A stretch of DNA of 24,607 nucleotides. Origin: an uncultured Legionella sp. (lineage in GTDB: Bacteria > Pseudomonadota > Gammaproteobacteria > Legionellales > Legionellaceae). Below the pieces are notes generated by a model. The model searched no databases and was not told the origin of the DNA. It saw only the letters and a list, made by a program, of their open reading frames with translations. Positions 209 to 22,687 of the stretch are shown here, one piece after another; the first letter of the stretch is position 1, and each line of letters begins with the position of its first letter. Location of the stretch: NCBI GenBank assembly GCA_964509745.1, contig CAZDYY010000001.1, positions 1-24,607 of the forward strand, written 5' to 3'. The position numbers and the translations under genes are program-made.

Positions 209-565
209 TTACTTCCTTTTTGTATCTTCAATAATACCATAACTATAGCCGCCAATTTCACTGGCAGGATCAAGCAGTGCCTCAATCTGGCTGCAAACTG
301 ATTTTGCATCGCTGCCGGTGAATTGAATACCAATACCCGATACAACATGATAGAGCGAAATGGCCGGGATAATCCAGACTACGCTTCCTTCAATATGCAA
401 AGCCTCATTTTTTCCCGGCAATTGCAGGTTGACTATCACTTTGTCTCCCAGTATGAATGATTGCGAGGTCGGAATAAACAAACCACCGTCCTTGATGAAT
501 GGCATATAGGACAGATTTAATTCGATGGGGTCGTTGATCACCAAATCAAGTGTATTGTCTGGCAT
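209..565 (-). CDS. pilZ: Type IV pilus assembly protein PilZ (PA2960-type)
   Basis: LSYMPFIKDGGLFIPT...GDKV...VVWI.P...GIGIQF signature. Start moved from 649 to ATG 565 (AGGA RBS, removes the overlap with pilE). Confidence 0.88.
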   Translation of the reverse strand: MPDNTLDLVINDPIELNLSYMPFIKDGGLFIPTSQSFILGDKVIVNLQLPGKNEALHIEGSVVWIIPAISLYHVVSGIGIQFTGSDAKSVCSQIEALLDPASEIGGYSYGIIEDTKRK

Positions 566-576
566 AATTTTGTTCC

Positions 577-984
577 TTACTGAGGCCAGCAGGCGCTCGG
601 TGCTTGTGTAATAACCCCGCTTGCTACGGTTAACGTCAAACTGCTGCATGATGTTCCATTGGCAGTATCACTGGCCTGCGTTCCTACCGCTGTGGCTGTA
701 ATGACATATCCTGTGGCGGACACATTGCTGATTCCAATGGTGTAATAGCCTGCCGGAGAAGACGTGACTCCAGCCCACACTTGAGCCAGCGTGCCATACT
801 GTGAATTATTGGTTCGGTACCTTTCTTCAGCCAGCATGATAGACATGATGGTACTAATCCCATCAATACGCCGTCCTCTTTTTACATGGCTGGTAAATAA
901 ATTTACTGCGATGACGGTAATAATGGATACAATGGCGAGAACAACCAGCAGTTCGATTAACGTCACTCCCCGTGTTCTTTTCAT
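577..984 (-). CDS. pilE: Type IV minor pilin, PilE-like
   Basis: Prepilin site MKRTRG|VTLIELLVVLAIV with E5, KRGRRIDG helix, C-terminal Cys pair (SCSSLTL...SACW). ATG 984 has a GAGG RBS overlapping the pilC stop. Confidence 0.85.
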   Translation of the reverse strand: MKRTRGVTLIELLVVLAIVSIITVIAVNLFTSHVKRGRRIDGISTIMSIMLAEERYRTNNSQYGTLAQVWAGVTSSPAGYYTIGISNVSATGYVITATAVGTQASDTANGTSCSSLTLTVASGVITQAPSACWPQ

Positions 985-991
985 ACATACC

Positions 992-2224
992 TCAAAAAAG
1001 AGAGCCGATTTTAAATATTGGCAGGTACATTGCAATCACAAATCCACCAACAATGACACCAAGAATTACCATAATCAGTGGTTCAAGTAAACTGCTTAAA
1101 TTATCAACGACAGTATTGACTTCTTCTTCATAGTAATCTGCTACCTTGTTTAACATTTCTGTCAGTTTACCAGATGCCTCACCCACGCCAATCATTTGAA
1201 TTGCCATATTGGGGAACAGTTTTGTGGTCGCCATGGAGACCGACAACCCTTGCCCATTGATCAGATCATCATGAATTTTCATGACCGCATCACTGTAAAT
1301 TTTATTTCCCATGATTTGAGCCATGGCTTTCATGGATTCAACAATGGGCATGCCTGCCTCAAATGTTGTCGCAAGGGTACGGCTAAAGCGTGCAATAATC
1401 CCTTTACGAAGAATGGGTCCAATAATCACAATTTTCAAAGTCCAGCGCTCGATGGTCTGGTGTAGCTCGGGATATTTTTGTAACGCATATCTAAAACCGA
1501 AGAACGTCCCGGCCATGATCATGATCAGCAGCCACCAGTCGTTGCTGATAAAATTGGACGCATGAACAACCATTCGTGTGAAGAAGGGCAGCTCTGCACC
1601 AAATGACGAAAACAGGGTTTGAAATTGCGGGACAACAAATACCAGCAATATCAGGCTGACGAGCAGGGCAATACTGAGAATGGCAATCGGGTATACCAGT
1701 GCCTTTTTTAGTTTTCTTCGCAGCGTTTCACTTCTCTCAAGGTGTTTTTCCAGCCGGCTCAGGGTTTTGTCCATCGTACCTGACCGTTCACCTGTTTTGA
1801 TCAGGTTACAGTACAAGTCGCCAAACAGTTTTGGATATTGAGCAAAGGATTCGGCCAGCGTTTTACCCTCGGCGGTGTTGTTTTTGATGGTGACAATCAG
1901 CGATTGCATGGCAGGATTTTCCTGATCATGAGCCATAATTTCCAGCGCCTGAATGATAGGTAACCCTGCACTTAGCAGGGTTGATAAGTAGCGGGTGAAA
2001 ATAATAATATCTTCCTGTTTGACTTTTTTCTTTTTGGAAAGAAAACTTAATCCAGGCAGATTAATGCCTTTTTTTTCTTCCAGGGAAATAATTTCAATGC
2101 TCATCTTTTTCAGCTCGAGCTGGGCATTTTTCATGTCGACAGACTGAATGGTACCGCTGACGCGATTTCCCTGTTTGTTCAGACCAACCCACTTGTAGTT
2201 GTTCTTTGTCGTTTCAGCCATCAT
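992..2224 (-). CDS. pilC: Type IV pilus inner-membrane platform protein PilC (T2SSF family)
   Basis: Two T2SSF repeats (FTRYLSTLLSAGLPI; FSRTLATTFEAGMPI), GERSG/GEASG motifs, C-terminal EPLIMVILGVIVGGFVIAMYLPIF. Confidence 0.95.
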   Translation of the reverse strand: MMAETTKNNYKWVGLNKQGNRVSGTIQSVDMKNAQLELKKMSIEIISLEEKKGINLPGLSFLSKKKKVKQEDIIIFTRYLSTLLSAGLPIIQALEIMAHDQENPAMQSLIVTIKNNTAEGKTLAESFAQYPKLFGDLYCNLIKTGERSGTMDKTLSRLEKHLERSETLRRKLKKALVYPIAILSIALLVSLILLVFVVPQFQTLFSSFGAELPFFTRMVVHASNFISNDWWLLIMIMAGTFFGFRYALQKYPELHQTIERWTLKIVIIGPILRKGIIARFSRTLATTFEAGMPIVESMKAMAQIMGNKIYSDAVMKIHDDLINGQGLSVSMATTKLFPNMAIQMIGVGEASGKLTEMLNKVADYYEEEVNTVVDNLSSLLEPLIMVILGVIVGGFVIAMYLPIFKIGSLF

Positions 2225-4104: not shown

Positions 4105-4530
4105 TTATTTAGCATAACCGTTGGTCACGCCACCACCTGATGAAACCCAGGTTAATTGCCCGCTTGCATTCAGCGTTGGGGTCAGGACATAAGTGTCCGT
4201 TGCCAAAATACCGTGTGCAGCTACTGGAGTAACCGTGATCACACCATTTGCCACGGCAAGCGATGTAATCGCGCCAACGGCTGTTGAAATGGCAGCTGGT
4301 ATATTATTCGAGCCAGCATTACACCCGGTTAAAGTGCCAAGCGTTTGCGCGCATTCGGCAACCCCTACACTGTAAGGAGCTGTTGCAGATACGACCTCAC
4401 TATAATACGCACGGCGAGCATAGTTTTGGTAAGAGGGAATAGCAACTGCGGCCAGAATACCAATGATCGCAATTGTTATCATCAACTCAATCAAGGTAAA
4501 ACCTTGCTGTGAAGACTTGTAGCTTTTCAT
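4105..4530 (-). CDS. pilA: Type IVa major pilin PilA
   Basis: QQG|[27 protein letters not shown], strong GGAGG RBS, first gene of the pilA-B-C arm. Confidence 0.92.
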
Positions 4531-4609
4531 TTTGACACCTCCAATACTGCTTGTTGTGAATAGGTTTGTGATTCTGGTGGAAGCACATATTTTCCTGTAC
4601 TACAATATA

Positions 4610-4618
4610 ACTATAGCA
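4610..4618 (-). promoter_or_regulatory. Putative extended -10 promoter of pilA (TGcTATAGT)
   Basis: TG-N-TATAGT on the minus strand about 80 nt upstream of the pilA ATG, in the AT-rich divergent intergenic region. No convincing -35. Confidence 0.45.
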
Positions 4619-4737
4619 CCGTTTTTAAATAAGGGAATTCTTTTGTACAATTTATCTGTGTACATGACTATTTTTATAGTTGTCCCCGCGGGAAAGACTA
4701 AATTAATTTTTTGATATGTCTAACATGGAGTCTGGAC

Positions 4738-5949
4738 ATGACGACCCCGAAAACCCTGAATCGGGACATTACCATCCTGATTGTTGAAAGCAGCCAGACT
4801 CAAAGAGCCACGCTGGAGTACTTGCTTCAAACGCAAGGTTATCAGGTTATCATTGCGGACAATGGCAAGGACGCGATCACCCTGGCAAGGCAACATACAC
4901 CTCATCTGGTGATAAGCGATGCCGTGATGCCGGAAATGGATGGTTTCTCCCTGTGCAGATCCTTCAGGGAAGAAGCTACATTAAGTGATATCCCCTTTCT
5001 GCTGATGATTTCTCTGGACACTATCGAAGAGATCATTCGGGGCCTTGAATCCGGAGCCGATAATTTTATCTATAAGCCTTACAATTCCACTTCACTTGTC
5101 GATCGGATTGATACGATTTTTTTAAACCGGCAAATGCGCCGGAAAGTGGATAAACAGGAAGAAATTCAGATTATCCACAACGGGAAAAAATATTTGCTGA
5201 ATGTGGAGCCGGAACAAATTCTGGATTTCCTGGTGTCGTTTGTCAAAGACAGCATGGACATGAACAAGCGGCTAAAGGAACGTGAATCTGAATTGCAAAA
5301 AGTAAGAAAGGCGGCGGATTTGGCCAGTTTTGAAAAAAGTAATTTTCTCGCCAGTTTGAGTCACGAAATCAGAACCCTTATGACCAATATCCTTGGCTTG
5401 CTGGAGTTGCTGAATATGAGCAAGCTGGATGTTGATCAGCATAGCACACTGATGACAGCCTATGATTCGGCAAAATTACTCCTGAGAATTATTCATGATA
5501 TGCTGGATTATCCCAAAATTGAGTCCAAAACCCGGGAGGCAGCTTTTGATGTTGATTCGGACAGGGAATTGTGCGGGTTCCGGGGGCCTGTTCCGGTTTC
5601 CGACCCGGTTGACAGGCGTTTCCTGGTCGAGCTGGTGGGGGATGATACGGCGGCTCAATGGGAGATTCTTGTGGATTTTCAACATTCGAATGCAGAGGAT
5701 AGCGCGCTGCTGGTTGATGCGGTTCGAAATAATAATTTGACTGAGGCGATGAACATGGCTCACCGCATCAAAAGTGCCTGCATGCTGGTCGGAGCAGAAA
5801 CCCTTGGCATGATCTGTCAACAAATCGAGGCAGCGGGTGAACGGGAGGATGAGGAGGCCGTCAGGCTGTTTGCCGACAGATTCCAGCAGGAAGTGGAGCG
5901 TTTGAACGTCTGGTTTGATACTCATCAGGATGAAAAGGATGGACATTAA
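4738..5949 (+). CDS. Atypical phosphorelay protein: degenerate REC + coiled linker + HisKA (DHp) + Hpt, no HATPase domain
   Basis: ATG 4738 with GGAG RBS. REC (LIVESS, VISD61AVMP, YK113P), H-box FLASLSH209EIRT..IIHDMLDYPKIES, then about 40 aa linker, then Hpt AH342RIKSAC. No N/G1/F/G2 boxes. Confidence 0.85.
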   Translation: MTTPKTLNRDITILIVESSQTQRATLEYLLQTQGYQVIIADNGKDAITLARQHTPHLVISDAVMPEMDGFSLCRSFREEATLSDIPFLLMISLDTIEEIIRGLESGADNFIYKPYNSTSLVDRIDTIFLNRQMRRKVDKQEEIQIIHNGKKYLLNVEPEQILDFLVSFVKDSMDMNKRLKERESELQKVRKAADLASFEKSNFLASLSHEIRTLMTNILGLLELLNMSKLDVDQHSTLMTAYDSAKLLLRIIHDMLDYPKIESKTREAAFDVDSDRELCGFRGPVPVSDPVDRRFLVELVGDDTAAQWEILVDFQHSNAEDSALLVDAVRNNNLTEAMNMAHRIKSACMLVGAETLGMICQQIEAAGEREDEEAVRLFADRFQQEVERLNVWFDTHQDEKDGH

Positions 5950-7156
5950 GGATTTAAATGTTTTAGTGGTAGAGGATGATGATTTTCAGCGTCGTGTCCT
6001 TGTTCGGGTATTGAAGGTTATGGGGCTGGACCGTATTGCCGAGGCGAAGAATGGACAGGGTGCACTGGATATTATTCAAAACAGAAAAGCACCGTTTGAT
6101 ATCTTGTTGTGTGATCTGAGAATGCCGGGTATGGACGGCATGGAACTTATTCGTCATCTGGGTGAAAAACAGTCTAAAACAGCAGTCATCATTGTGAGCG
6201 GGCTGGAGAATGTGCTGCTCTCATCTATTGAAATCATGGCACAGGATTATGGTGCAAACATGCTGGGCCGGATTGAAAAGCCCGCTTCGATCAAAAAGCT
6301 TGAAATCCTGTTTAATAAATATCTGTCAATACAGACGAGTCTCAAGCAGGAAAAGAATACACCGGTTAGTCAGGAGTTTACCCAGCCCGAACTGGTTAAT
6401 GGCTTGACAAATGATGAGTTTGAGCCTTTTTTTCAGCCCAAGGTTAACATGGTGTCCGGAAACATTACCGGTGCCGAGGCGCTGGCGCGGTGGCGACATC
6501 CGCAGAAGGGCATGATTGCTCCGGACCTGTTTATTGCACAGATGGAAAACAGCAGCCTGATCGATGCGCTGACACTGCTGATGATAAAAAAAGCTACCCA
6601 TCACAGCAAGATCTGGAGGGAAAAGGGGTTGAATATCACCGTATCGGTCAATTTATCCATCAAGTCCCTGATGAATCCAGGGTTTGCCGACAGCATTATC
6701 GAGCTGGTGGCCAGTCAGAAATCTGATCCCCGCCACATGGTCCTGGAAATCACTGAATCTGCCATTACATCGCATGTGGGCCGTGTACTGGAAAATCTGG
6801 CACGCCTGAGAATTCACGGTTTTGGTTTGTCAATTGATGATTATGGTACGGGGTATTCTTCCCTGCAGCAATTGATGCGCATTGCCTATAGCGAGTTAAA
6901 AATTGACAAGTCTTTTATCACCCATGCATCAACACAGGATTCAGCACGGGTGATTGTGGCATCGTCACTGGAAATGGCGAGGAAACTGGCCATGACATCT
7001 GTGGCGGAGGGGGTTGAATATCAATCGGACTGGGATTTTCTGGCTACACTGGGGTGTGATGTCGCCCAGGGATACCTGATTTCCAAACCGCTGCCCGCAG
7101 ATGAATTTTATGACTGGGCTACAGAATGGTCGCGAGCTGGATTTTCCCGAAAATGA
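5939..7156 (+). CDS. REC-EAL response regulator, c-di-GMP phosphodiesterase (RocR-like architecture)
   Basis: Intact REC (VEDDD, CDLRMP, VSG, EKP). EAL motifs FQPKV, AEALARW, SVNLS, LEITES, IDDYGTGYSSL, LKIDKSF, VAEGVE, AQGY. Likely start ATG 5939, overlapping the upstream gene by 11 nt. Confidence 0.93.
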   Translation: MDIKDLNVLVVEDDDFQRRVLVRVLKVMGLDRIAEAKNGQGALDIIQNRKAPFDILLCDLRMPGMDGMELIRHLGEKQSKTAVIIVSGLENVLLSSIEIMAQDYGANMLGRIEKPASIKKLEILFNKYLSIQTSLKQEKNTPVSQEFTQPELVNGLTNDEFEPFFQPKVNMVSGNITGAEALARWRHPQKGMIAPDLFIAQMENSSLIDALTLLMIKKATHHSKIWREKGLNITVSVNLSIKSLMNPGFADSIIELVASQKSDPRHMVLEITESAITSHVGRVLENLARLRIHGFGLSIDDYGTGYSSLQQLMRIAYSELKIDKSFITHASTQDSARVIVASSLEMARKLAMTSVAEGVEYQSDWDFLATLGCDVAQGYLISKPLPADEFYDWATEWSRAGFSRK

Positions 7157-7223: not shown

Positions 7224-7258
7224 AATTTTCTGTCCTGATAATGGGGGGTCCACTATAC

Positions 7259-8266
7259 ATGGCTAAAGTAGAATTTTTTGGATTGGATATCGGGACTGAT
7301 TTTATAAAATTATTGAAGATAAATGCTTCCCGGAATCCCTTTCAGATTGAACATTTACTCATTTCCCCCACCCCAAAGGACGCCATTGTCAAGGATGAAA
7401 TCAAGGATAGTGCGGCACTTGGATCGTTGCTGGGTGAAATGATTGAAAAAGCCAATATAGCCACAAAATTTGTTGCAGTGGCAATTCCTGGCTCTCTTGC
7501 CATTATCAAATCCACAATGATTGACAGCCGACTGACTGCTGATGAAATCGAATCCCGGGCATGGCTTGAAGCCAATCGATATTTCCCGGATTTAGTTGGT
7601 AATATCTATCTGGATTATGCAGTGACGGGTGCGCCGGTACAAAACCCCGCGCAAGCGGAGCTTCTGCTGGTTGCCTGCCGTAAAGATCAAATCAAGCCCT
7701 ATCTGGATATGCTGGATCAAGCGGGTCTGGTCGCAAAAATTGTGGATGTGAACTGTTATGCTCTGGCCCGAGCATTATCCATGACCCCGCAGCCACCGGT
7801 CATACAAACCATTGCGTTGCTCAATTTAAATGTTACCTTGAGCTCCTTGATTGTCGTGCAGAAAAACTATCTGCTCCATGCCCATGATCAAAGTTATAAT
7901 GGACAGCGCTTGCTCACGCAAACGCAGGCCTGGATTGCCAGCAACCCCTCCAGTGATTTGCTTGATGATATTGAATACCAGAAGATTATTAAAGAAAATC
8001 TGGTGTCTCACCTGCGACACACCATGCAATTTTTTTATACCAGCAAACCGGATGTCGGTATAGAAAAACTGTTGCTATCCGGTGATTTGGCCAATATTCC
8101 CATGTTATCATCATTTATTCAGCGGGAAATCGGGATTGAGACAGTCGTTGCCAATCCATTCGCCAATGTTACACTGGCACCGGAGATCAATGAGGATGAG
8201 ATCAAAAAATACGCCCCTTCATTTATGCAATGCTGCGGGCTGGCACTCAGCGACTTTCCCGGATAA
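7259..8266 (+). CDS. pilM: Type IV pilus alignment protein PilM
   Basis: Actin-like GLDIGTDFIKL, VAIPGS, LLVACRKD, KIVDVNCYAL, LLLSGD. First gene of the MNOPQ run. Start at ATG 7259 preferred over 7241. Confidence 0.92.
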   Translation: MAKVEFFGLDIGTDFIKLLKINASRNPFQIEHLLISPTPKDAIVKDEIKDSAALGSLLGEMIEKANIATKFVAVAIPGSLAIIKSTMIDSRLTADEIESRAWLEANRYFPDLVGNIYLDYAVTGAPVQNPAQAELLLVACRKDQIKPYLDMLDQAGLVAKIVDVNCYALARALSMTPQPPVIQTIALLNLNVTLSSLIVVQKNYLLHAHDQSYNGQRLLTQTQAWIASNPSSDLLDDIEYQKIIKENLVSHLRHTMQFFYTSKPDVGIEKLLLSGDLANIPMLSSFIQREIGIETVVANPFANVTLAPEINEDEIKKYAPSFMQCCGLALSDFPG

Positions 8267-11575: not shown

Positions 11576-12209
11576 GATGTTGAAATCATGGCGATGCAGG
11601 AAAGGTTTTTTTTGTACCAAAGCCCTTGTGAAAATAATATCTATAGCACTCATGCTGAATCTGGGTGCTTGCAGTATTAAAAAGTCAGGCAAAGACAATG
11701 AGGACCGGAATCGAAAAATTCACACTGCAAAAATTAATGCCCAGCTGGGTATTGCCTATCTGGAAAGAAATGATGTCCAGCGTGCCAAACAAAAATTGTT
11801 ACTGGCGCTGGACCAGGCGCCCAATATTCCGGAGCCATGGTATTCAATGGGATATTTTCTTGAGGCCACCGGGAATACCCAGGAAGCAGGGAAATATTAT
11901 TTAAAAGCGATACAACTGGCGCCGAGACAGGGAGAGGCAAAAAATAACTATGGCACTTATCTGTGCCGTACCGGGCGGTATCAGGCGTCGATTCAACAGT
12001 TTTTACTGGCAGTACAGGACCCGAATTATATCAATCCGGCAGCGGCCTATGAAAATGCCGGATTGTGTGCTTTGAAAATTCCGGACAAAGCACATGCCCG
12101 GATTTATTTTGAACAAGCACTGTCGCGAGACTCAACCCGTTCGTTGTCTCGCCGGAAACTGGCTGAATTGAAAGGTGAGCCGCTACGAAATAACAGGAGC
12201 ACGTATTGA
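11565..12209 (+). CDS. pilF: TPR lipoprotein pilotin PilF (Pseudomonas) / PilW (Neisseria)
   Basis: Lipobox LGAC, AKINAQLGIAYL, TPR repeats, NNYGTYLC, AYENAGLC. The exact start is uncertain. Confidence 0.88.
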   Translation: MKSKMLKSWRCRKGFFCTKALVKIISIALMLNLGACSIKKSGKDNEDRNRKIHTAKINAQLGIAYLERNDVQRAKQKLLLALDQAPNIPEPWYSMGYFLEATGNTQEAGKYYLKAIQLAPRQGEAKNNYGTYLCRTGRYQASIQQFLLAVQDPNYINPAAAYENAGLCALKIPDKAHARIYFEQALSRDSTRSLSRRKLAELKGEPLRNNRSTY

Positions 12210-12640
12210 GTATGAAAACAGGAATAATCAGTAAACTGGGCATGGTCGCCGTACCAGGGCTGATGGCTTTTTTATTATTTATGAATTTTTCCTCCCATAA
12301 AACCCGTCCATTACCGGCTGCTGACCTTGTTAATGCAAGCATGCCTGCAGTCAAAATGAAAGTGGCTATTACGCCTGTTGAACCTGTCGCTGTTGCACCA
12401 GTGGCTGCCTTGCCTCTTCAGGAAGAAATCAGAGTGCAGTCCAGTCCGGATGATTTGGTGTTAAATGGGATATTTATTTCAGAACAATTTAAATCGGCCA
12501 TGATTAACAATCATTTTTACCAGGAAGGCGACACCATCAAGGGCATGAAAATTGTGTCGATTGAATATGAGCAGGTGAAATTAAACAATAAAATTTTAAG
12601 AATGGAACTGGCTTCAATCGGAGACAGTAATCAGGAGTAG
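12206..12640 (+). CDS. Bitopic protein with Pro/Ala linker and GspB/MshK-like C-terminal beta domain
   Basis: N-terminal TM helix, PVEPVAVAPVAALP linker, C-terminal LVLNGIFISEQFKSAMINNHFYQEGDTIKGMKIVSIEYEQVKL. AGGAG RBS, TTG overlaps the pilF stop. Confidence 0.55.
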   Translation: MSMKTGIISKLGMVAVPGLMAFLLFMNFSSHKTRPLPAADLVNASMPAVKMKVAITPVEPVAVAPVAALPLQEEIRVQSSPDDLVLNGIFISEQFKSAMINNHFYQEGDTIKGMKIVSIEYEQVKLNNKILRMELASIGDSNQE

Positions 12641-13259: not shown

Positions 13260-13940
13260 ATGAATTGTCGATACACTCTGAACATGGCACGCAAACAATC
13301 AGGGTTTACCCTGGCCGAGTTATTGGTTGTTCTGGCCATTAATTTAATACTGTTTGCTGGACTCACCACACTGATTGTGGCGAATTTGAATCATTACCGG
13401 GTTGCCTTGAGTACCATGCGGCTGAATCAGCAATTACAATCAGCGCTGTTATTGATGGGTAACGATATACGCCGGGCAGGATACTGGTCGAATGCGAGCA
13501 GTGATGTTGGCGGGACGCAAAATAATAACCCGTTCATGACCAATGCAACCGATATTACCGTATCAGGCGGCAATTGCGTGTTATTCACCTATGATCAGAA
13601 TGGAGATGGTTCATTGCCGGCAATTGATGCGTCCATTGATGATGAGCGTTATGGATACCGGCTCAATGGTCAGGTATTGCAGGCAAGGCCCCCCGGTGCT
13701 TCATTTTCCTGTGGCGCGAATGCATCCGAGTGGGAAAATATAACCGATACACAAAATATCCAGATCACCAGTCTTGCTTTTACCTTAACGACAAGTACCC
13801 TGACAACAGGGCCTGGCACAAAAGGACTGGTTCAGCGTGCCATGGATATCAGCATCACAGGCCGGTTGGGCAGTGATAATACAATTACCAGAACCTTCAC
13901 CCAGCACATCAGGATCAAAAATGACAAGTTTGTTCCTTAA
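13260..13940 (+). CDS. pilW: Minor pilin PilW/PpdB-like (GspJ-type)
   Basis: QSG|FTLAELLV, LLLMGNDIRRAGY, Cys pair. Alternative start ATG 13284. Confidence 0.82.
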   Translation: MNCRYTLNMARKQSGFTLAELLVVLAINLILFAGLTTLIVANLNHYRVALSTMRLNQQLQSALLLMGNDIRRAGYWSNASSDVGGTQNNNPFMTNATDITVSGGNCVLFTYDQNGDGSLPAIDASIDDERYGYRLNGQVLQARPPGASFSCGANASEWENITDTQNIQITSLAFTLTTSTLTTGPGTKGLVQRAMDISITGRLGSDNTITRTFTQHIRIKNDKFVP

Positions 13941-15030
13941 TACCCGGCGGGGAGCCGCCACCCTGTTATTTACGGTGACCATGCTGGTGCTCAGTACGAT
14001 GGTCATTTTATTTGCTACCAATTTTGCTGTCATGCAGTATAAAACAGCTGCGAATCTGAATCGCAATACCCAGGCCTATGAGGCGGCGGAAGCAGGTCTC
14101 GAATTTGGTATTACCTACCTGCAGCAAAATTCCGCAACGATTCTGGCCAGCCCGAGTGGCGGCTATATTTTGCCTTATTCCAATGCCAGCACGACCAATG
14201 TGGTTCTGGCTAACAACAGTAAATTTTCGATTAGTTATACAAATCCTGTGGCTAATAATTACACGCTGATTAAAATAACATCAACAGGCACCAGTGACGA
14301 TGGATCATCCACCAGAGTCGTGAGCCAGCTGGTCGGGTTTGGTTCGATACTGGCCAACATACCCTCGACCCCCCTGACCACCAAGGGTGATGTGACGATG
14401 GGAGGGAATGCAACAATCAGGAACACAAACTCAAACACAACGGTCCAATCTGCAGGACAGGTAGACATCAGCGGCAGTGCAAAAACCGTGTTGTCATCGG
14501 GAACCAGCTCGACAGCTGCCCAGATCAAATCCGATGTTCAACAGAGTGTGTCATCCCTCCAGTCCATATCGACCAGTGATTTTTTTGCAACGTATTTTGG
14601 GGTGCCTGCTGCAACGGTTAAAAACAATATGGAACATTACTACAGCAACAGCAGTGATAAAAATTACAGCAGCTCGCTAAGCGGTATGTCGGGCACATCT
14701 ATCTGGATCGATCAAACCGGCGGTACGGCAACCATTAATGGAATCACAGTCATTGGTTCATCAACTAACCCGGTAGTGATGGTGGTTAATGGCGATCTGT
14801 CAATGAGGGGCATTGTAGTGATCTATGGCTTTGTTTATGTTGTTGGAGACTCAAGTTCCACTGACATTTTGGGGAGTGTGACGATTAATGGTGCGCTGGT
14901 GACGCAATCTGATTTAAAATTAACGGGTAATGTTACCGTAAATTATGATGCCACGGCATTAGGTAATGTGAAAAATCAAACCGCATTAACCTATTACGCC
15001 AAGGTACCTGGCAGCTGGAAGGACTTTTAA
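13921..15030 (+). CDS. pilX: Minor pilin PilX-like (GspK-type), long form, 369 aa
   Basis: ATG 13921 with AGGA RBS, RRG|AATLLF (no E5), QAYEAAEAGLEFG PilX N-terminal motif, long G/N/S/T-rich C-terminal region. Confidence 0.8.
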   Translation: MTSLFLNTRRGAATLLFTVTMLVLSTMVILFATNFAVMQYKTAANLNRNTQAYEAAEAGLEFGITYLQQNSATILASPSGGYILPYSNASTTNVVLANNSKFSISYTNPVANNYTLIKITSTGTSDDGSSTRVVSQLVGFGSILANIPSTPLTTKGDVTMGGNATIRNTNSNTTVQSAGQVDISGSAKTVLSSGTSSTAAQIKSDVQQSVSSLQSISTSDFFATYFGVPAATVKNNMEHYYSNSSDKNYSSSLSGMSGTSIWIDQTGGTATINGITVIGSSTNPVVMVVNGDLSMRGIVVIYGFVYVVGDSSSTDILGSVTINGALVTQSDLKLTGNVTVNYDATALGNVKNQTALTYYAKVPGSWKDF

Positions 15031-15031
15031 T

Positions 15032-15460
15032 ATGACAGCGCAACGCATGAAAGGGCAAACGCTGGTAGAAGTACTGGTTAGCCTGTTGTTCATCACCGTG
15101 GGTGCTCTGGCGTTAATCCGGTTTCAAAATTATCTGGCATATGATACGAGTATGGCCCAGCAAAAAGGCACAGCGATGTTGCTTGCCATATCACGAATTG
15201 AAACCCTGCGGGATTTTCAGGTATTGAATAACACCAGCGGCTATACGTCATATCAAAGCATTGCATCCGGGTCGTCAACCTCAGCCGTGAGTGATGCCAC
15301 CTATACCATTACCTGGACCGTAACAACCTTTACCAGTCCGGATTATAAAACAGTTGCCGTGACCGTCTCGTGGACAGATCATAATGGTAACACGCAATCC
15401 ATACAGCAAGTGTCGGATTTTGCAGGTATAGATCCGCAATATTCCGCAACGATTATGTGA
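15032..15460 (+). CDS. pilV: Minor pilin PilV/PpdC-like (GspI-type)
   Basis: MKG|QTLVEVLVSLLFITVG.L.L, RIETLR, KTVAVTVSWTD..G. Confidence 0.8.
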   Translation: MTAQRMKGQTLVEVLVSLLFITVGALALIRFQNYLAYDTSMAQQKGTAMLLAISRIETLRDFQVLNNTSGYTSYQSIASGSSTSAVSDATYTITWTVTTFTSPDYKTVAVTVSWTDHNGNTQSIQQVSDFAGIDPQYSATIM

Positions 15461-15475
15461 CAGGAGAGAACAGTC

Positions 15476-16024
15476 ATGAGATATATCATTGTAACGCTGA
15501 TTCTACTGACCGGGGCAATCAGCAATGCCGGGGTTTATGAGGAAGACACAAGCCAGGGCGGTGTTCTTTACACTGACACACCATCACCCAATGCCAAACC
15601 GGTGGATTCATCTGATGAAACCAGTTCAATTTCAGGTCCACCACCAGAGGCCCGGAAGGAAGGTTCAGCAAAGGAAGATCAAATAGTAGCTAACCAGATG
15701 TACAAGACGTTTGTCATTGTTTCACCCAAAGATCATGACACAACCCAGGGACAGTCACCGATTCCGGTGAAAATGAAACTGGAGCCAGCATTGCATGAAG
15801 GGGACACAATCCAGATCATGATAGATGGCAAGCCATTTGGCCCGGCAACCACTGATTTAAATCCATCACTCAGTGAGGTAGCGCGGGGCGTGCATCAGTT
15901 ATCAGCGGTTATTCTTGATGCAAGGCAAGCCATCATCAAGCAAAGCAACTCACTGACACTTTATGTGCATCGAACCAGTGCCCAGACATCACCTGCGCTG
16001 CGTCCATTGTCGCCGGCCAGGTAG
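15476..16024 (+). CDS. Exported DUF4124-family protein with Ig-like C-terminal domain
   Basis: Signal peptide, VYEEDTSQGGVLYTDTP (DUF4124-like), C-terminal RGVHQLSAVILD. AGGAG RBS 15 bp after pilV. Confidence 0.7.
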   Translation: MRYIIVTLILLTGAISNAGVYEEDTSQGGVLYTDTPSPNAKPVDSSDETSSISGPPPEARKEGSAKEDQIVANQMYKTFVIVSPKDHDTTQGQSPIPVKMKLEPALHEGDTIQIMIDGKPFGPATTDLNPSLSEVARGVHQLSAVILDARQAIIKQSNSLTLYVHRTSAQTSPALRPLSPAR

Positions 16025-17072: not shown

Positions 17073-19964
17073 ATGCGATTTTTTCTGTTGCCATGTTTGC
17101 TGTTATCTTTTTTTACAACCCCTGTATTTCCGGCATCAAATGACAGCGTTGATAAACTGAATACGTTCCTTGCCCGGGAAAAAGTAAATTTAACCCAGGC
17201 TCTTCATGCAGAAGAGCTGTTGTCCAAATCAGACAAGATACTGAATCAAGCCGCATTAACCACGCGTAAACAGCAAAATGCCGACATGCTGGCACTTGTT
17301 CGAGTAAAAATAGCTACACTCAATGATTTTAATTTCAATCAGCGCAAGCGACAGCAAAACCTCGCCCGCCGGCTGAAAGCACTGCAACAATTACCTTTGG
17401 AAAAGACGCAAAATACCCAGGCGATTGATGAGCGCATGAAGTATATTGAGGCACTAAAAATAGAAAATGGAAATACCATTGATTTGATTGGTGAAAACCT
17501 CGAGCTTGCGAAAGGGTACGAAGCAATGCTGGTGGCTACGCAAAATCGGCTGGCCATGCTGCAAGCGAATATGACAGAGCAGCAGCATCTGGATCAGTTG
17601 CAGGAAAAAATTCATCAACTCAAACGGGAACGCGACAAGCTGTATCAGAAAAGCCTCGATCTTCAGCAGGCAAAAAAAGCCAATGGCTCCTTTGGCGATA
17701 ATTTGAATCATGAGGCCGAGCTATTGTTGAATAACCAGGCCATCATTCTTCTCCAGCAGCAAATTATTGAACTGGGGTCGCAAAAAAAACTGCTGGCTGC
17801 TGATTATTTGCTGTTGAACAATCAGGATATCAAAACCATTTCTCAAGCTATTGATCTGTATAGCCTGGCTATCAGGCAATTAAGTGGAATAGAGCAATCC
17901 CTGAAAAAAATGCAGGAATTGCTGGATAATGAGCAGCATTTTCTCTCAAATGCCCGGTTTGAAAAAAACCGGCTTTTGCTGAAGAAAACGGTTGCGTTGC
18001 GTTTGAAGCAAGTCAGCAAGCAACATGATTTCTTGCAAAAGGAGCTTGAGAAAAAGCAGCATCAGTTAAATCAAAAGCTGGCCTCGCGTCAAGGTTTAAC
18101 GGAGTATCATCTATACAGCTGGCCTGCTCTCACCAGTCAGTTATTGCATGTTCCGGCACAATTTTATCATTACCTGAAATTGCTTGCATTGAAGGTCAGT
18201 CATAATTATTTGCAGCTGGATGCCTGGTCGGCAGTGAGGGTGTGGGGAAGTCTTTGCTCAATCCTGCTGGCAGGACTGGCTTTGGGGCGTGGTTTGGATG
18301 CGGTGGTGCAAGGTAAACAGCGATCCAGTATGTCAGGCCATCTGTTTGATGGTGCGTTGATGCTGCTGTATCGAAATATACCGCATCTGACCATTGCGGC
18401 CATGCTGATGACGATGTTTTTTCTTAATCATATTGTCTTTGAAAACTATCAGTTGCTGGTGAATCTGTTTCTGGTCTGGCTGGGATTTCGCAATATCATC
18501 CTGATTGCACGCCTGATGTTTCTCGAGCGTATCAGTGATTCTTCCGGCAAGGATGTTAAATTGTATTACCGGTTGTTATGGTTGTTGCTTGCAGGCGGAT
18601 GGGCTACTGCACTGATGGTGTTGAGTCATCAGATGCCATTGTCGCTTTTGCTTCAGGATATTTTTAACCGGCTGGTGATGCTGTTTTTGCTGGCGGTTTC
18701 TCTGGTGGCATGGAAAAGCAAGGATGTGATTCGCTATTTACTTGCGCCGTTGTTAAAAAAGCGGAAAAAGCGCTATTTGCGCAATGCCATTTCACTTCTG
18801 GCCGTGCTGGTACCGCTGACGTTGCTTACCACGGCGATTATCGGGCTTGTCGGGTATATTGATTTGGCATGGACAATGAGTCGGTATCAGGCGTATGTCT
18901 TGCTGGTCATGATCTGTTATGTTCTTGGACGAGGTCTGGTGCTGGATGGTCTTGATGCCTTGTCGAAATGGATGATCACATCGCTGCATAACGGGTGGCT
19001 GTGGATCGAGGTGATTCTCAAACCACTCGACGCCATTGCACGGGTACTTCTGGTGTTATTGGCCATCGTGACCTTGTTCCAGTTGTTTGGCTGGACAGCC
19101 GATTCCCAGGTCGTGAGTGTGTTGCAAACCATAGGGAAATATCCGTTTGTGAATTTGTCCGGAGCACGTATCACCGTGTACAGTGCTCTGGAATTTATCG
19201 TGCTGTTATTTGTATTCATCTGGTTCGCAAAATGGACACGCGAGTTTTGTTTTCGCTGGTTGTATCGCCATGTGATGGACTCAGGTGTTCGCAACAGCCT
19301 TTCGGTGTTCACCCAGTATGCTGTGATTATCCTCGGAGGTTTGTTGACCCTGCGGGTATTGGGGATTGATTTTACCGGTATGGCAATTGTATTTGGCGGT
19401 CTGGCTGTAGGGATGGGATTTGGCTTGCGGGATTTTGCCAGTAATATTGTCGGCGGTATCATGCTGTTGATTGAACGACCTGTACGTGAGGGGGATTTGA
19501 TTACCCTTGGTGAATATGAAGGACGCGTTGCACATATCGGTATTCGATCCATGCGGGTGTCGTCGTGGGATCATATGGAAGTGTTGATCCCCAATGCCGA
19601 GACCTTTAACAAGCCTTTTACCAACTGGACACATCAGGACAGTATTGTCAGGACGGTCGTGCCGATCAAGGTCAATCGTGCAGATGATCCGTGCGTTGTG
19701 CAACAATTGATTATGGATGTTCTGGTGATCATTCCCGAGGTATTGAATGACCCACCGCCCCAGGTGTTGCTAAAGCAAATTGATGATGTTCTGATTGATT
19801 TTGAAATCCGTTATTTTGTTAACGTACAACATCATACCCGCTTTGAGATTCGTTCAAAGGTATTGTTTGCAATCATGGCGCAGTTCAAGGCTGCAGGTAT
19901 CAGGACACCGGTTCCATCATTGAATGTTGAATTAAATCATGACACGCACCCCGCCAGCGAGTGA
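17073..19964 (+). CDS. Large mechanosensitive channel, MscS family (MscK-like)
   Basis: Signal peptide, long coiled-coil periplasmic region, many TM helices, MscS core GFGLRDFASNIVGGIMLLIERPVREGDLI. Start ATG 17073, or GTG 17013. Confidence 0.9.
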   Translation: MRFFLLPCLLLSFFTTPVFPASNDSVDKLNTFLAREKVNLTQALHAEELLSKSDKILNQAALTTRKQQNADMLALVRVKIATLNDFNFNQRKRQQNLARRLKALQQLPLEKTQNTQAIDERMKYIEALKIENGNTIDLIGENLELAKGYEAMLVATQNRLAMLQANMTEQQHLDQLQEKIHQLKRERDKLYQKSLDLQQAKKANGSFGDNLNHEAELLLNNQAIILLQQQIIELGSQKKLLAADYLLLNNQDIKTISQAIDLYSLAIRQLSGIEQSLKKMQELLDNEQHFLSNARFEKNRLLLKKTVALRLKQVSKQHDFLQKELEKKQHQLNQKLASRQGLTEYHLYSWPALTSQLLHVPAQFYHYLKLLALKVSHNYLQLDAWSAVRVWGSLCSILLAGLALGRGLDAVVQGKQRSSMSGHLFDGALMLLYRNIPHLTIAAMLMTMFFLNHIVFENYQLLVNLFLVWLGFRNIILIARLMFLERISDSSGKDVKLYYRLLWLLLAGGWATALMVLSHQMPLSLLLQDIFNRLVMLFLLAVSLVAWKSKDVIRYLLAPLLKKRKKRYLRNAISLLAVLVPLTLLTTAIIGLVGYIDLAWTMSRYQAYVLLVMICYVLGRGLVLDGLDALSKWMITSLHNGWLWIEVILKPLDAIARVLLVLLAIVTLFQLFGWTADSQVVSVLQTIGKYPFVNLSGARITVYSALEFIVLLFVFIWFAKWTREFCFRWLYRHVMDSGVRNSLSVFTQYAVIILGGLLTLRVLGIDFTGMAIVFGGLAVGMGFGLRDFASNIVGGIMLLIERPVREGDLITLGEYEGRVAHIGIRSMRVSSWDHMEVLIPNAETFNKPFTNWTHQDSIVRTVVPIKVNRADDPCVVQQLIMDVLVIIPEVLNDPPPQVLLKQIDDVLIDFEIRYFVNVQHHTRFEIRSKVLFAIMAQFKAAGIRTPVPSLNVELNHDTHPASE

Positions 19965-20604
19965 GGCAGAGCTTCTGGAGCGTTGTCAGGCGATAGAGGG
20001 GTTAAGTTTGTCCCAGCTGGCAGCGCAACTTGATTTGTCTATTCCAGAGCATCCTGTGCAGCGCAAGGGTTGGGCCGGCCAGGCGATTGAGCGGGCATTG
20101 GGAGCGAGTGCGGGCAGTCGATCGGAGCCGGATTTTGTTGATTTGGGGATTGAGCTGAAAACCTTGCCCGTCAATCATTTGGGCAAGCCTGCCGAGTCAA
20201 CGTTTGTCACCACCATTCCACTGCTTACAGTGCACAAACAATCCTGGCAGACATCCCAATGCCTTGCCAAGCTGCGACGTGTACTGTGGCTGCCAGTTGA
20301 GGATGACGCCATGATTCCATTTCAGCATCGGCGCATTGGCCGGGGGGTGTTATGGTCTCCGTCAGCAGAGGAGGAGGCTGTTCTTGCCAATGACTGGTCC
20401 GAATTAACCTTGATGATTGGTACCGGGCGCCTGGCTGAAATAGATGCAAGCATGGGAGATTACTTGCAAGTCAGGCCGAAGGCTGCGAATGCCAAATCAT
20501 TGTGTTATGGTTTTGATGAGGAAGGGAATAAAGTGTTCACCTTGCCCCGGGGATTTTATTTGCGCAGCAGTTTTACCGGCAAGATCGCACTCAAGCTTCT
20601 GTAG
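19939..20604 (+). CDS. mutH: DNA mismatch repair endonuclease MutH
   Basis: PP.SE.ELL, KGWAGQAIE..LGA.AGS..EPDF..LGIELKTLP, ESTFV, LWLPVE, YLQVRPKAAN, LPRGFYLR. Confidence 0.93.
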   Translation: MTRTPPASEAELLERCQAIEGLSLSQLAAQLDLSIPEHPVQRKGWAGQAIERALGASAGSRSEPDFVDLGIELKTLPVNHLGKPAESTFVTTIPLLTVHKQSWQTSQCLAKLRRVLWLPVEDDAMIPFQHRRIGRGVLWSPSAEEEAVLANDWSELTLMIGTGRLAEIDASMGDYLQVRPKAANAKSLCYGFDEEGNKVFTLPRGFYLRSSFTGKIALKLL

Positions 20605-20643
20605 TCAAAATTTTATTGGGAATATATACTGATTTACCGTTGA

Positions 20644-20689
20644 CTCGACTTTATGAAATTCGGCGGTGGGGATTTTTCACAAAGTCGAG
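20644..20689. repeat. Imperfect long hairpin in the mutH-downstream intergenic region
   Basis: CTCGACTTT (20644-20652) / AAAGTCGAG (20681-20689), plus inner TGAAA/TTTCA pairing. Confidence 0.6.
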
Positions 20690-20763
20690 GTTGAGACTAT
20701 TTGTATTTTTCGGACATGAGCACATATGTTCAGGAAAAGACAACACACGTTGGGACAATTGAT

Positions 20764-21303
20764 ATGTGGCTTGCATTATTCAGGCAATACTGGGGCGTCA
20801 GCATGTTCAGGCAATCACCTGAAAACACTCCATACTCTCCGTTACTGTCAGGGATTGTGGCTCTGGCGTTTCTTGCGCTGATTGTTTTGCAATGGATGAT
20901 GACGGATGTCAGTCAGCAGTTGACCTTTGCTACAGCATTACTGATCGCCGGTTCACTGGTGTTGTCGTACGTTGTGTATACCTGGGTGTTATTATTGTTG
21001 TATCGATTGAAAGCACGGTTCGTACAAACCCTGACCTGTCTTTTGGCAGGCCACACCGTTGTGCATCTGGTGGCGTTTCCCTTGTTGCTGGTGATGCCGG
21101 TACTGCTTAACGCCCAAACCATCCCGGTGCTGGCTTCCCTGTTCGGGATTGTTTATCTGGTTTTGACGCTGGTTTTGGCAATTTGGCAATTTATGGTGTC
21201 AGCCTATATCTACAAATATGCCCTGTCTGTGAACTGGCTTTCGGCGGTGCTGGCAGGATTCGGCTTGCTGGCATGTAATATATTAACGGTTTCATTTTGG
21301 TGA
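20764..21303 (+). CDS. Hypothetical multi-pass membrane protein
   Basis: About five hydrophobic helices, P.NTPYSPLL N-terminal motif. ATG 20764 with GGGA RBS. Confidence 0.75.
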   Translation: MWLALFRQYWGVSMFRQSPENTPYSPLLSGIVALAFLALIVLQWMMTDVSQQLTFATALLIAGSLVLSYVVYTWVLLLLYRLKARFVQTLTCLLAGHTVVHLVAFPLLLVMPVLLNAQTIPVLASLFGIVYLVLTLVLAIWQFMVSAYIYKYALSVNWLSAVLAGFGLLACNILTVSFW

Positions 21304-21310
21304 TAGGTAT

Positions 21311-22687
21311 ATGCATTTACATATTCTTGGATTAAGTGGCACATTCATGAGTGCGCTGGCTTTGCTGGCTCGTGAAGCAGGGTTTCAGGTGACGGGCAGT
21401 GATGCCAATTGCTATCCGCCGGTGAGTGATTTGCTGGCTGCAAAAGGGATTGCCTGGACGGAAGGATATGACGATACAACGCAAGCCCTGAAAGCGGATT
21501 GCGTAATTGTGGGCAATGCCATCAAGCGCGGCATGCCGGTGATGGAGGCGGTACTGGATGCAGGCAAGCCTTATACCTCGGGTCCGCAGTGGCTGGCTGA
21601 ACATATTCTGCCCGGCCGGCGCGTGATGGCTGTTGCAGGTACACATGGGAAGACCACCACCACATCGATGCTGGCGTTTATTTTGCATCAGGCAGGACTG
21701 GAGCCTGGTTTTTTGATTGGCGGTGTGGCAACCGATTTTAATACCAGTGCCGGTTTGGGAAAAGGTGCATGGTTTGTGATTGAGGCCGATGAATATGACA
21801 GTGCGTTTTTTGATAAACGTCCGAAATTCATGCATTACCGTCCTGAAGTGGCTATTTTAAATAATCTGGAATTTGATCACGCGGATATTTATGCTGATCT
21901 TGCGGCAATTCAGCAGCAATTTCATTATCTGCTGCGAACCATTCCAGGCTCGGGACTGGTGATTAAACCACGTGATGATGCTGCGTTAAATGCTGTACTG
22001 GAGCGAGGTCAGTATAGTCGCCTGGAAGAGCTGGCCTTGAACGGTGATGCCGCCTGGCGTGCGGAAATTCTCGATGACAAGGGCCAGTCATTCAGGGTTT
22101 GGCAGCAAGGCAGGCAAGTCGCTGAGGTGAACTGGTCCCTGATTGGCTCATTTAATGTGGAAAATGGGCTGGCTGCACTGGCGGCCAGCGTTGCCGCGGG
22201 TGTCAAACCTGCTGTAGCTGCGGCTGCCCTGGAAAAATTTTCTCCGGTCAAGCGCCGTCTTGAGGTCAAGTCCAGTCGTCATGGCGTGGTGGTGTATGAT
22301 GATTTTGCCCATCACCCTACAGCCATTGCCAAAACCATTCATGCATTAAAGCAAAGCGGCCGGCATCAGCGCATTTTAGTGGTGCTGGAGTTTGCATCAT
22401 ATACCATGCGCTCGGGCATTCATGGCGAAAAGATGGTTCATGCTCTGGATGGTGTGGATTTTGCCTGGGTACTGAATCCTGCGCAATTTTCCCTTGAGGA
22501 TATTACCCGTCACTGGCAATTTCCTTACCATGTCCTGCCCACAGCCGGTGCGATTGTGGATTCAATAGCCAGCACGGTGCAGGCAGGGGATGCGGTACTG
22601 GTGATGAGCAATCGTGGTTTTGACAATATCCACCAGCAATTGATAGCTAAAATTGACGAGCGGTTTGCATTGTCTGTGCAATCATAG
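21311..22687 (+). CDS. mpl: Murein peptide ligase Mpl (peptidoglycan recycling)
   Basis: MHLHILGLSGTFM, GSDAN.YPP.S, GTHGKTTTTSM, EADEYDSAFFDKRPKF, NNLEFDHADIY, DDFAHHPTAI, LVMSN.GF. Confidence 0.93.
   Translation: MHLHILGLSGTFMSALALLAREAGFQVTGSDANCYPPVSDLLAAKGIAWTEGYDDTTQALKADCVIVGNAIKRGMPVMEAVLDAGKPYTSGPQWLAEHILPGRRVMAVAGTHGKTTTTSMLAFILHQAGLEPGFLIGGVATDFNTSAGLGKGAWFVIEADEYDSAFFDKRPKFMHYRPEVAILNNLEFDHADIYADLAAIQQQFHYLLRTIPGSGLVIKPRDDAALNAVLERGQYSRLEELALNGDAAWRAEILDDKGQSFRVWQQGRQVAEVNWSLIGSFNVENGLAALAASVAAGVKPAVAAAALEKFSPVKRRLEVKSSRHGVVVYDDFAHHPTAIAKTIHALKQSGRHQRILVVLEFASYTMRSGIHGEKMVHALDGVDFAWVLNPAQFSLEDITRHWQFPYHVLPTAGAIVDSIASTVQAGDAVLVMSNRGFDNIHQQLIAKIDERFALSVQS

Follow-up and report, generated by a model that had tools for sequence, protein, structure and literature searches.

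Sequence comparison shows that P0001, a REC-DHp-Hpt protein encoded by an uncultured Legionella sp., arose by in-frame deletion from a kinase with the architecture REC-HisKA-HATPase-REC-Hpt. Its gene and the REC-EAL gene that follows it make up a two-gene cassette, flanked by pilA and pilM, in a type IV pilus locus that lies in a 24,607-nt stretch of DNA referred to here as the window (Table 1). Given the alignments and structure models described below, we assign about an even chance to the proposal that P0001 acts as a DHp-dimerized, kinase-less Hpt adaptor that would feed the REC-EAL enzyme.

Table 1. Positions in the window of the cassette genes, the modules of P0001, and the flanking pilus genes (G004 is a same-genus genome)
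Feature	Position	Strand	Details	Evidence
pilA (major pilin)	4105..4530	-	Left flank of cassette; 79% identical to G004 ortholog
pilA-to-cassette intergenic region	4531..4737	.	207 bp	Alignment to G004 pilA-pilM intergenic region
REC-DHp-Hpt gene (P0001)	4738..5949	+	403 aa	ORF, Pfam, alignments, AlphaFold2
REC1	4774..5109	+	Residues 13-124; D61 at 4918-4920, S18 at 4789-4791, I91 at 5008-5010	Pfam, residue check
Linker	5137..5334	+	Beta-hairpin (residues 142-155), then long helix entering DHp helix 1	AF2 model, predicted homodimer
HisKA/DHp	5335..5526	+	Residues 200-263; H209 at 5362-5364	Pfam, genome HisKA scan
Deletion junction	5530..5613	+	Residues 265-292	Alignments, AF2 model, Logan contig
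Hpt four-helix bundle	5614..5940	+	Helices 293-401; H342 at 5761-5763; Ser346 = H+4	Pfam, AF2
REC-EAL c-di-GMP phosphodiesterase (P0002)	5939..7156	+	Predicted acceptor Asp D59	Pfam EAL E 7e-68, REC E 2e-20
pilM (first of pilMNOPQ)	7241..8266	+	Right flank of cassette; 84 nt past REC-EAL stop; 74% identical to G004 pilM

The reading frame of P0001 is unbroken, with neither a stop nor a frameshift within its 403 codons. Pfam searches recovered Response_reg (E = 6e-22), HisKA (E = 1.6e-15, with the H-box histidine H209 in SHEIRT), and Hpt (residues 309 to 389, E = 7.6e-10), and all three matches far exceed their cut-offs. The original prediction, which had read a receiver, a DHp/H-box, and an Hpt domain in one uninterrupted frame, is confirmed by the ORF and Pfam results, and every residue that it named is present (E17-S18, D61, I91-S92, K113, H209-E210, T213-L214 within RTLM, H342, and S346). 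HATPase_c was not found by Pfam at E values of up to 1, and the CA domain is missing in the alignment gap described below as well. Pfam likewise did not detect a second receiver (REC2), the single receiver stretch being the N-terminal one. Hybrid kinases are usually viewed as self-contained H1-D1-H2 relays, and the internal receiver (D1) that lies between the kinase core and Hpt in such a relay is missing from P0001. The AlphaFold2 model of P0001 has a mean pLDDT of 88.5 and consists of three folded modules, in the order receiver, beta-hairpin, helical hairpin (residues 158 to 226 and 232 to 270), disorder (residues 270 to 285, pLDDT of <50), and helical bundle (residues 293 to 401). No CA remnant is seen in this model, where only the disordered stretch separates DHp helix 2 from the Hpt bundle. 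Domain scan, alignment gap, and model thus all agree with the earlier claim that P0001 has neither a HATPase domain nor a second receiver.

In a search of 5.8 billion proteins, the nearest full-length homologs of P0001 were REC-HisKA-HATPase-REC-Hpt proteins of Legionella species (663 to 699 aa) that are 47 to 54% identical to it. Eight to ten full-length homologs from the Legionellaceae (688 to 711 aa) align end to end with P0001 save for the CA-REC2 block. More distant outgroups (728 to 746 aa) also carry the full architecture, which indicates that the short form is derived. The top matches of P0001 are all members of this family, and P0001 is nested inside it in an outgroup-rooted tree. Alignment with the full-length homologs runs from residue 1 to ∼274 and resumes from ∼284 to the end of P0001, and ∼300 residues (CA and REC2) are missing in frame at the junction. 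The left side of the junction pairs with the first post-DHp residues of the homologs, and the right side, PVPVSDPVD, pairs with their pre-Hpt linker, PLPTAPPID. Alignment of both sides shows that the junction had been placed correctly at about positions 5527 to 5610, and ∼9 residues inside it have no counterpart in the homologs. An early alignment set REAAFDVDSDRE against the pre-REC2 linker, giving a two-deletion model. Because better alignments put REAAFDVDSDRE after DHp, this model was abandoned for one with a single gap, in which nine residues cannot be assigned. The short GTTCCGG repeats that had been noted at the junction are indeed present in two copies (positions 5577 and 5590), but they were rejected as a deletion scar, a 7-mer pair of this kind being at chance level.

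A 2.34-Mb MAG of 506 contigs, 86.8% complete with 6% contamination, has the window as its longest contig. The short form is a singleton, known from this one MAG at a depth of ∼5×. Low depth, contamination, and the number of contigs would suit an assembly artifact, in which a chimera or collapse produced the short form and the true locus carries a full-length kinase. We find this barely credible. An independent assembly of the source sample (Logan) contains a 736-nt contig covering positions 5233 to 5968 with zero differences and no joint, so that a second assembler yields an identical path over the junction without variants; the word depth of this contig is only ∼5, and the support comes from assembled contigs. 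Furthermore, CA and REC2 are not collapsible repeats, the reading frame is kept, and the missing part was not found on any other contig of the genome. Collinearity of the contig with the pilus locus of the same-genus genome G004 was also counted toward the reality of the sequence, which is present in two run records of one groundwater sample.

On the minus strand, the pilus locus in the window encodes a PilZ-domain ORF, a ComP-like pilin, PilC, PilB, and PilA, and on the plus strand it encodes PilMNOPQ, a TPR protein, and minor pilins. Gene content and order are the same in G004 (49 to 79% identity), where pilA adjoins pilM, with 238 bp between them. The 207-bp region upstream of the cassette aligns over most of its length with this 238-bp spacer, including a conserved block at about positions 4609 to 4631, which places the two-gene cassette between a shared regulatory region and pilM. 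Base composition does not clearly point to a foreign origin (GC3 of 0.52 to 0.54 versus a window range of 0.38 to 0.57). Promoter and terminator scans returned matches at chance level only, among them a weak promoter-like site at positions 4624 to 4651. Words sampled from the window did not occur in the study's one transcriptome-labeled run. A Shine-Dalgarno sequence, GGAG, is found at positions 4726 to 4729, 8 nt ahead of the ATG at 4738, and the REC-EAL start overlaps the P0001 stop by 11 nt; both features were counted in favor of a retained function for P0001. The REC-EAL protein P0002 has every receiver and EAL hallmark residue and is 53 to 57% identical to the products of the REC-EAL genes that follow full-length homologs in the four genomes compared. 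Its best NCBIfam match is the PvrR model NF052596, with a score of 338.5 bits that falls below the equivalog cut-off of 580 bits, which indicates that P0002 is not PvrR.

Full-length genes of the family are preceded by a Che-type cluster (CheW, CheR, CheW, MCP, CheA, CheB) and followed by an orthologous REC-EAL gene wherever the context was available, i.e., in four genomes and four metagenome contigs. REC-EAL directly follows the family gene in loci L115, L117, L118, and L119. The upstream neighbor of P0001 is pilA, not a Che cluster. CheW, CheR, MCP, CheA, and CheB were not found by tblastn or by a CheW family search in the 86.8%-complete genome, where their absence is not proven, and on this basis the ancestral input appears to be missing. 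The genome contains five Hpt and ten HisKA matches in total. On C89, a HisKA-HATPase-REC hybrid kinase without Hpt is followed by a paralogous REC-EAL gene, and this kinase was counted in favor of a retained relay function for P0001. Among 206 same-family genomes, the gene occurs in only three others and is full-length in all three. No relative closer than 54 to 55% identity was found in the searches of 5.8 billion proteins, 1.84 billion representatives, metagenome contigs, and the 206 same-family genomes, and a scan of genome contigs with the family alignment, which picked out generic receiver motifs, returned unrelated receivers only. P0007 of L. feeleii and P0006 of Legionella sp. 29fVS95, both uncharacterized Che-linked kinases, are orthologous to P0001 in REC1, linker, DHp, and Hpt. 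Compared with kinases of this type, P0001 lacks CA, REC2, and the upstream CheW-CheR-CheW-MCP-CheA-CheB genes, lies among pilus genes, and carries a REC1 that is a pseudo-receiver.

Two short members of the family, P0155 and P0132, came from the exhaustive search of 1.84 billion representatives. P0155 (256 aa), which is known from a single 1-kb contig (run SRR22387992), consists of a canonical REC1 fused almost directly to Hpt, without DHp, CA, or REC2, and is 50 to 55% identical to P0001. In trees built from REC1 and Hpt, the two proteins form a clade (SH-aLRT/UFBoot of 90.3/85 unrooted and 92.9/91 with outgroups) that is nested within the family beside P0004 and P0005. They have derived states in common (SDPVD opening the pre-Hpt linker, Y392W, and GAE), and the Hpt of P0001 is 50% identical to that of P0155 versus 36 to 46% for all others. 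We infer that the deletion is common to P0001 and P0155. Under a shared loss, the two frames would have stayed open over ∼0.4 to 0.5 substitutions per site. A second homolog search, seeded with P0155, returned no further REC-Hpt relatives. P0132 (441 aa) has the architecture REC1-linker-REC2-Hpt, with DHp and CA deleted, and keeps the usual synteny (MCP, CheA, CheB, P0132, REC-EAL). P0009 (688 aa, from two samples) retains all of the domains, but Asn stands in place of the H-box His and the G2 box is missing. Since P0132 and P0009 are located elsewhere in the tree, kinase function has been lost at least three times, and the independent losses in these two proteins point to REC1, Hpt, and REC-EAL as the conserved core. 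The original prediction had considered that all close homologs might be full-length kinases, whereas P0155, P0132, and P0009 are reduced or kinase dead. The family seems to make up a natural deletion series that comprises the full form, the His-less P0009, the REC-REC-Hpt protein P0132, the REC-DHp-Hpt protein of the window, and the REC-Hpt protein P0155.

Evolutionary rates were compared between the terminal branch of the window protein and three kinase-competent deep lineages on a fixed eight-taxon tree, with the REC-EAL partner as an internal clock. Relative to the kinase-competent lineages, the rate on the P0001 branch was 1.02-fold for REC1 and 0.78-fold for Hpt, while that for DHp was 2.18-fold (site bootstrap 95% interval, 0.99 to 7.4; 3% of replicates were ≤1). 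The same pattern was found for P0009, whose DHp rate was 3.3-fold. Because only DHp is accelerated, the release of constraint appears to be specific to the dimerization/phospho-acceptor helix and not gene-wide. P0001 departs from the rest of the family at 12 of the 80 positions on which all other members agree (D18S, T91I, P214L, and G346S among them), versus 5 to 7 for other deep lineages.

These data bear on the main rival to a functional Hpt adaptor, namely, that P0001 is a nonfunctional relic. In that case, the deletion would have killed the relay, the frame would remain open through youth or through polarity on REC-EAL and pilMNOPQ, and REC-EAL would be unphosphorylated or fed by another protein. 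The number of altered invariant positions and the loss of hallmark residues in REC1 and the H-box are consistent with a relic, as are the Che input genes that were not found and the singleton status of the window form in all databases searched. The location of the cassette, with the shared pilA-pilM spacer on one side and pilM on the other, is a further point in favor of a relic, as it makes it plausible that read-through is needed for the downstream genes. However, decay of the whole gene should affect all three domains, and a raised rate is seen for DHp but not for REC1 or Hpt. A relic is also at odds with the same loss in the sister protein P0155 at 50 to 55% identity, with an intact Hpt, and with an open frame of this length. 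The relic explanation is weakened by P0155 and by the confinement of the acceleration to one domain, and we judge it to be somewhat unlikely. The same two points also qualify the earlier suggestion of a recent in-frame deletion of a REC-HisKA-HATPase-REC-Hpt kinase. The proposed ancestor is supported by the homologs, but "recent" is not, given that P0155 is also reduced and that only DHp is accelerated. The deletion is probably not recent decay, as far as these sequences indicate.

REC1 retains D61 and K113 but has Ser (S18) where the metal-binding Asp is expected and Ile (I91) at the site of the switch Thr. In the alignment, D18 and T91 are invariant across all other family members, and their retention in P0155 indicates that D18S and T91I are particular to the window lineage. 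The canonical receiver set (DD, D, T/S, K) is therefore incomplete in REC1, with the second acidic residue and T/S missing. [quoted passage not shown] Despite this, REC1 could in principle drive a shorter relay, in which an unlinked kinase phosphorylates D61 and the group passes directly to H342 and then to REC-EAL. Such a route is suggested by the sister P0155, where a canonical REC1 is fused to Hpt, and by the relative P0132, where REC1, REC2, and Hpt stand behind CheA-CheB; the retained D61 and K113 and the normal rate of REC1 would fit it as well. It is opposed by the loss of the metal-binding Asp and of the phosphoryl-contacting Thr/Ser, by the resulting pseudo-receiver status, and by the failure to find CheA in the genome. 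In CheY, phosphorylation is abolished or much reduced by substitutions of D13, and T87I prevents activation, which was likewise counted against phosphate entry through REC1. We consider this route improbable.

The DHp of P0001 retains H209, E210, and T213, so that its H-E-x-x-T motif is intact, while the H-box Pro is changed (P214L) and the X-box Ser is missing. Residues 135 to 282 were predicted to form a homodimer with a score of 0.56 versus 0.00 for the best control, and heptad-like contacts start at residue 165 of the predicted dimer. In the benchmark of this score, the mark was attained by 21 of 30 solved homodimers and by 0 of 23 monomers. The score of P0001 may reflect resemblance to solved DHp dimers. 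The CA-less DHp might instead serve as a phosphatase or phosphate sink that uses H209, E210, and T213 to dephosphorylate the REC-EAL receiver or to take its phosphate by reverse transfer, comparable to EnvZ domain A and RedE. The intact motif and the predicted dimer are consistent with such a role, and there is a precedent in the non-autophosphorylating RedE, whose DHp His accepts phosphate from a receiver and which acts as a phosphatase (PMC2755868). However, RedE has a CA domain, and its phosphatase activity required an adenine nucleotide cofactor (PMC2755868). The DHp of P0001, moreover, is the single domain with relaxed constraint, has lost the H-box Pro and the X-box Ser, and has been wholly discarded in the sister P0155. 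A phosphatase or sink role is thus very unlikely in our view.

The Hpt bundle of P0001 is modeled by AlphaFold2 with pLDDT values of 93 to 98, and the only hallmark residue altered is the Gly at H+4, which has become Ser. Among Hpt domains, 10% carry Ser there, and the G68S variant of Ypd1 shows 94% phospho-acceptance and 81% of relay activity retained (PMC6341664). These published data suggest that G346S is harmless and that Ser is a natural active variant (PMC6341664). Judged from its sequence and model, the Hpt of P0001 looks intact. The Hpt adaptor is favored because Hpt is the only module of P0001 that appears intact, evolves normally, and has canonical chemistry. As an Hpt adaptor, the P0001 product would still work, although not as a kinase. 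Its dimer would be held by the surviving DHp and coiled coil, and H342 of the Hpt would take the phosphoryl group from the receiver of a hybrid kinase encoded at another locus and deliver it to Asp59 of the translationally coupled REC-EAL protein. Through this transfer, the hydrolysis of c-di-GMP would be matched to the expression of pilus genes. The N-terminal pseudo-receiver would most likely be a docking or regulatory module and not a phosphoryl carrier, and the DHp His is probably vestigial. The singleton form, the 12 altered invariant positions, and the Che input that was not found were counted against the Hpt adaptor. The original prediction had also offered a dedicated phosphotransfer hub with two His sites fed by an unlinked kinase. 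Kinase-less phosphotransfer is upheld by an Hpt that looks intact and by the activity of Ser at H+4, but two His sites go beyond the evidence, with DHp relaxed and REC1 a pseudo-receiver.

The nearest functional analog of P0001 is RcsD (YojN) of the enterobacterial Rcs phosphorelay, a likeness in described function. RcsD is kinase derived and does not autophosphorylate, and its Hpt relays phosphate from the receiver of another protein to a response regulator. It is a membrane protein with degenerate DHp and CA folds from which the His is missing, whereas P0001 has physically lost the CA domain, retains the DHp His, and carries a pseudo-receiver at its N terminus. The proposed output of P0001 resembles that of RocS1-RocR and PvrS-PvrR of Pseudomonas aeruginosa, in which the Hpt of an unorthodox kinase acts on a REC-EAL protein to control surface appendages. 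The kinases of the Roc and Pvr systems, however, are full membrane-bound sensors, and their targets are Cup fimbriae rather than the type IV pili encoded at the window locus. Spo0B, ChpT, and RedE resemble P0001 in having a DHp module without autokinase activity. All three retain a CA-like domain and lack Hpt, whereas in P0001 the DHp appears relaxed and the Hpt carries the conserved His site. The ESM Atlas contains many clusters of at least 50 members with REC and HisKA but no HATPase_c, and one 645-aa cluster of Bacillota also has Hpt. These clusters are uncharacterized, feature-based look-alikes, some of which may be fragments, and neither kinship to P0001 nor descent from a Che-linked kinase is implied.

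The case made here is modest, as kinase-less Hpt carriers such as RcsD and pseudo-receivers are already known and the short form comes from one low-coverage MAG. Its main interest lies in the deletion series within one family and in a cassette inserted at a pilus operon. One small family has lost kinase function at least three times yet has kept REC1, Hpt, and, where the context is available, REC-EAL, and its deletion series provides ready natural constructs for studying the phosphate entry point in relays and the use of a CA-less DHp. We raise as a tentative possibility that the DHp-CA core is dispensable in this family, with phosphate normally coming from outside (CheA or another kinase), and that the window protein is a DHp-dimerized Hpt adaptor that was captured together with its phosphodiesterase and would gate c-di-GMP at the head of the type IV pilus operon. 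A c-di-GMP phosphodiesterase cassette directly before pilMNOPQ would offer a simple, testable link from phosphorelay signaling to pilus biogenesis in an uncultured lineage of the Legionellaceae.

The nearest relative of the kinase-less window protein P0001 is P0155, in which both the receiver and the Hpt domain are canonical. A 68-amino-acid gene fragment lies upstream of P0155 and ends 3 nt from its start. A second reduced family member, P0132, lacks both the DHp and CA domains, each of which is cleanly gone, and it sits in the usual family gene order of MCP, CheA, CheB, P0132, and REC-EAL.

Features discussed in the text, with their locations
Feature	Location	Strand	Length	Description
P0155	1025-nt contig, Logan run SRR22387992		256 aa	REC-Hpt
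P0132	L119:5476-6801		441 aa	REC-linker-REC-Hpt
P0009	L115:3193-5259, also L116		688 aa	Full-length family member
Hybrid kinase, then REC-EAL gene	C89:1-2356 (L123)			Kinase is HisKA-HATPase-REC
PilZ-domain ORF	window 209-649	minus		
ComP-like pilin ORF	window 577-1035			

In the full-length member P0009, the H-box histidine is replaced by asparagine (SNEIYKPM), and the G2 box position is a gap. The P0009 protein sequence was identical in two separate runs, and its gene is flanked by CheA directly on the 5′ side and by REC-EAL on the 3′ side. The DHp domain of P0009 evolves ∼3.3 times faster. P0009 looks like an independent kinase-dead lineage.

The genome containing the window (G000) encodes further relay components. 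Contig C89 carries a hybrid kinase that is cut by the contig end and lacks an Hpt domain, followed by a second REC-EAL gene whose product is 37% identical to the REC-EAL protein of the window; this pair has no Hpt of its own. A membrane HisKA-HATPase kinase on contig C211 reaches the contig end just where a receiver begins, and contig C88 ends in a receiver-Hpt fragment. These two pieces may be a single LetS/GacS-type gene that was halved by assembly.

As listed, the PilZ-domain and ComP-like pilin ORFs share 73 nt. The true start of the PilZ-domain ORF is probably further downstream, because the orthologue in the same-genus genome G004 is shorter (120 aa). For several ORFs within or past the pilus locus (window 12206-12640, 13837-16024, and 20701-21303), Pfam gave no match. 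Orthologues of the first four are present at the collinear G004 locus, with 53 to 70% identity. GC skew rises to about 0.2 across the Hpt/REC-EAL region (window 5001-6500) and rises again, with strongly negative AT skew, in the MscS-to-Mur region (window 18000-22500).

The pilA-pilM intergenic region is kept in both same-genus genomes (window 4531-4737; L122:9043-9280 in G004). Around window positions 4609-4631, the two regions are almost identical over a block (ACTATAGCAC...AAATAA) that is possibly a regulatory site common to the divergent pilus operons.
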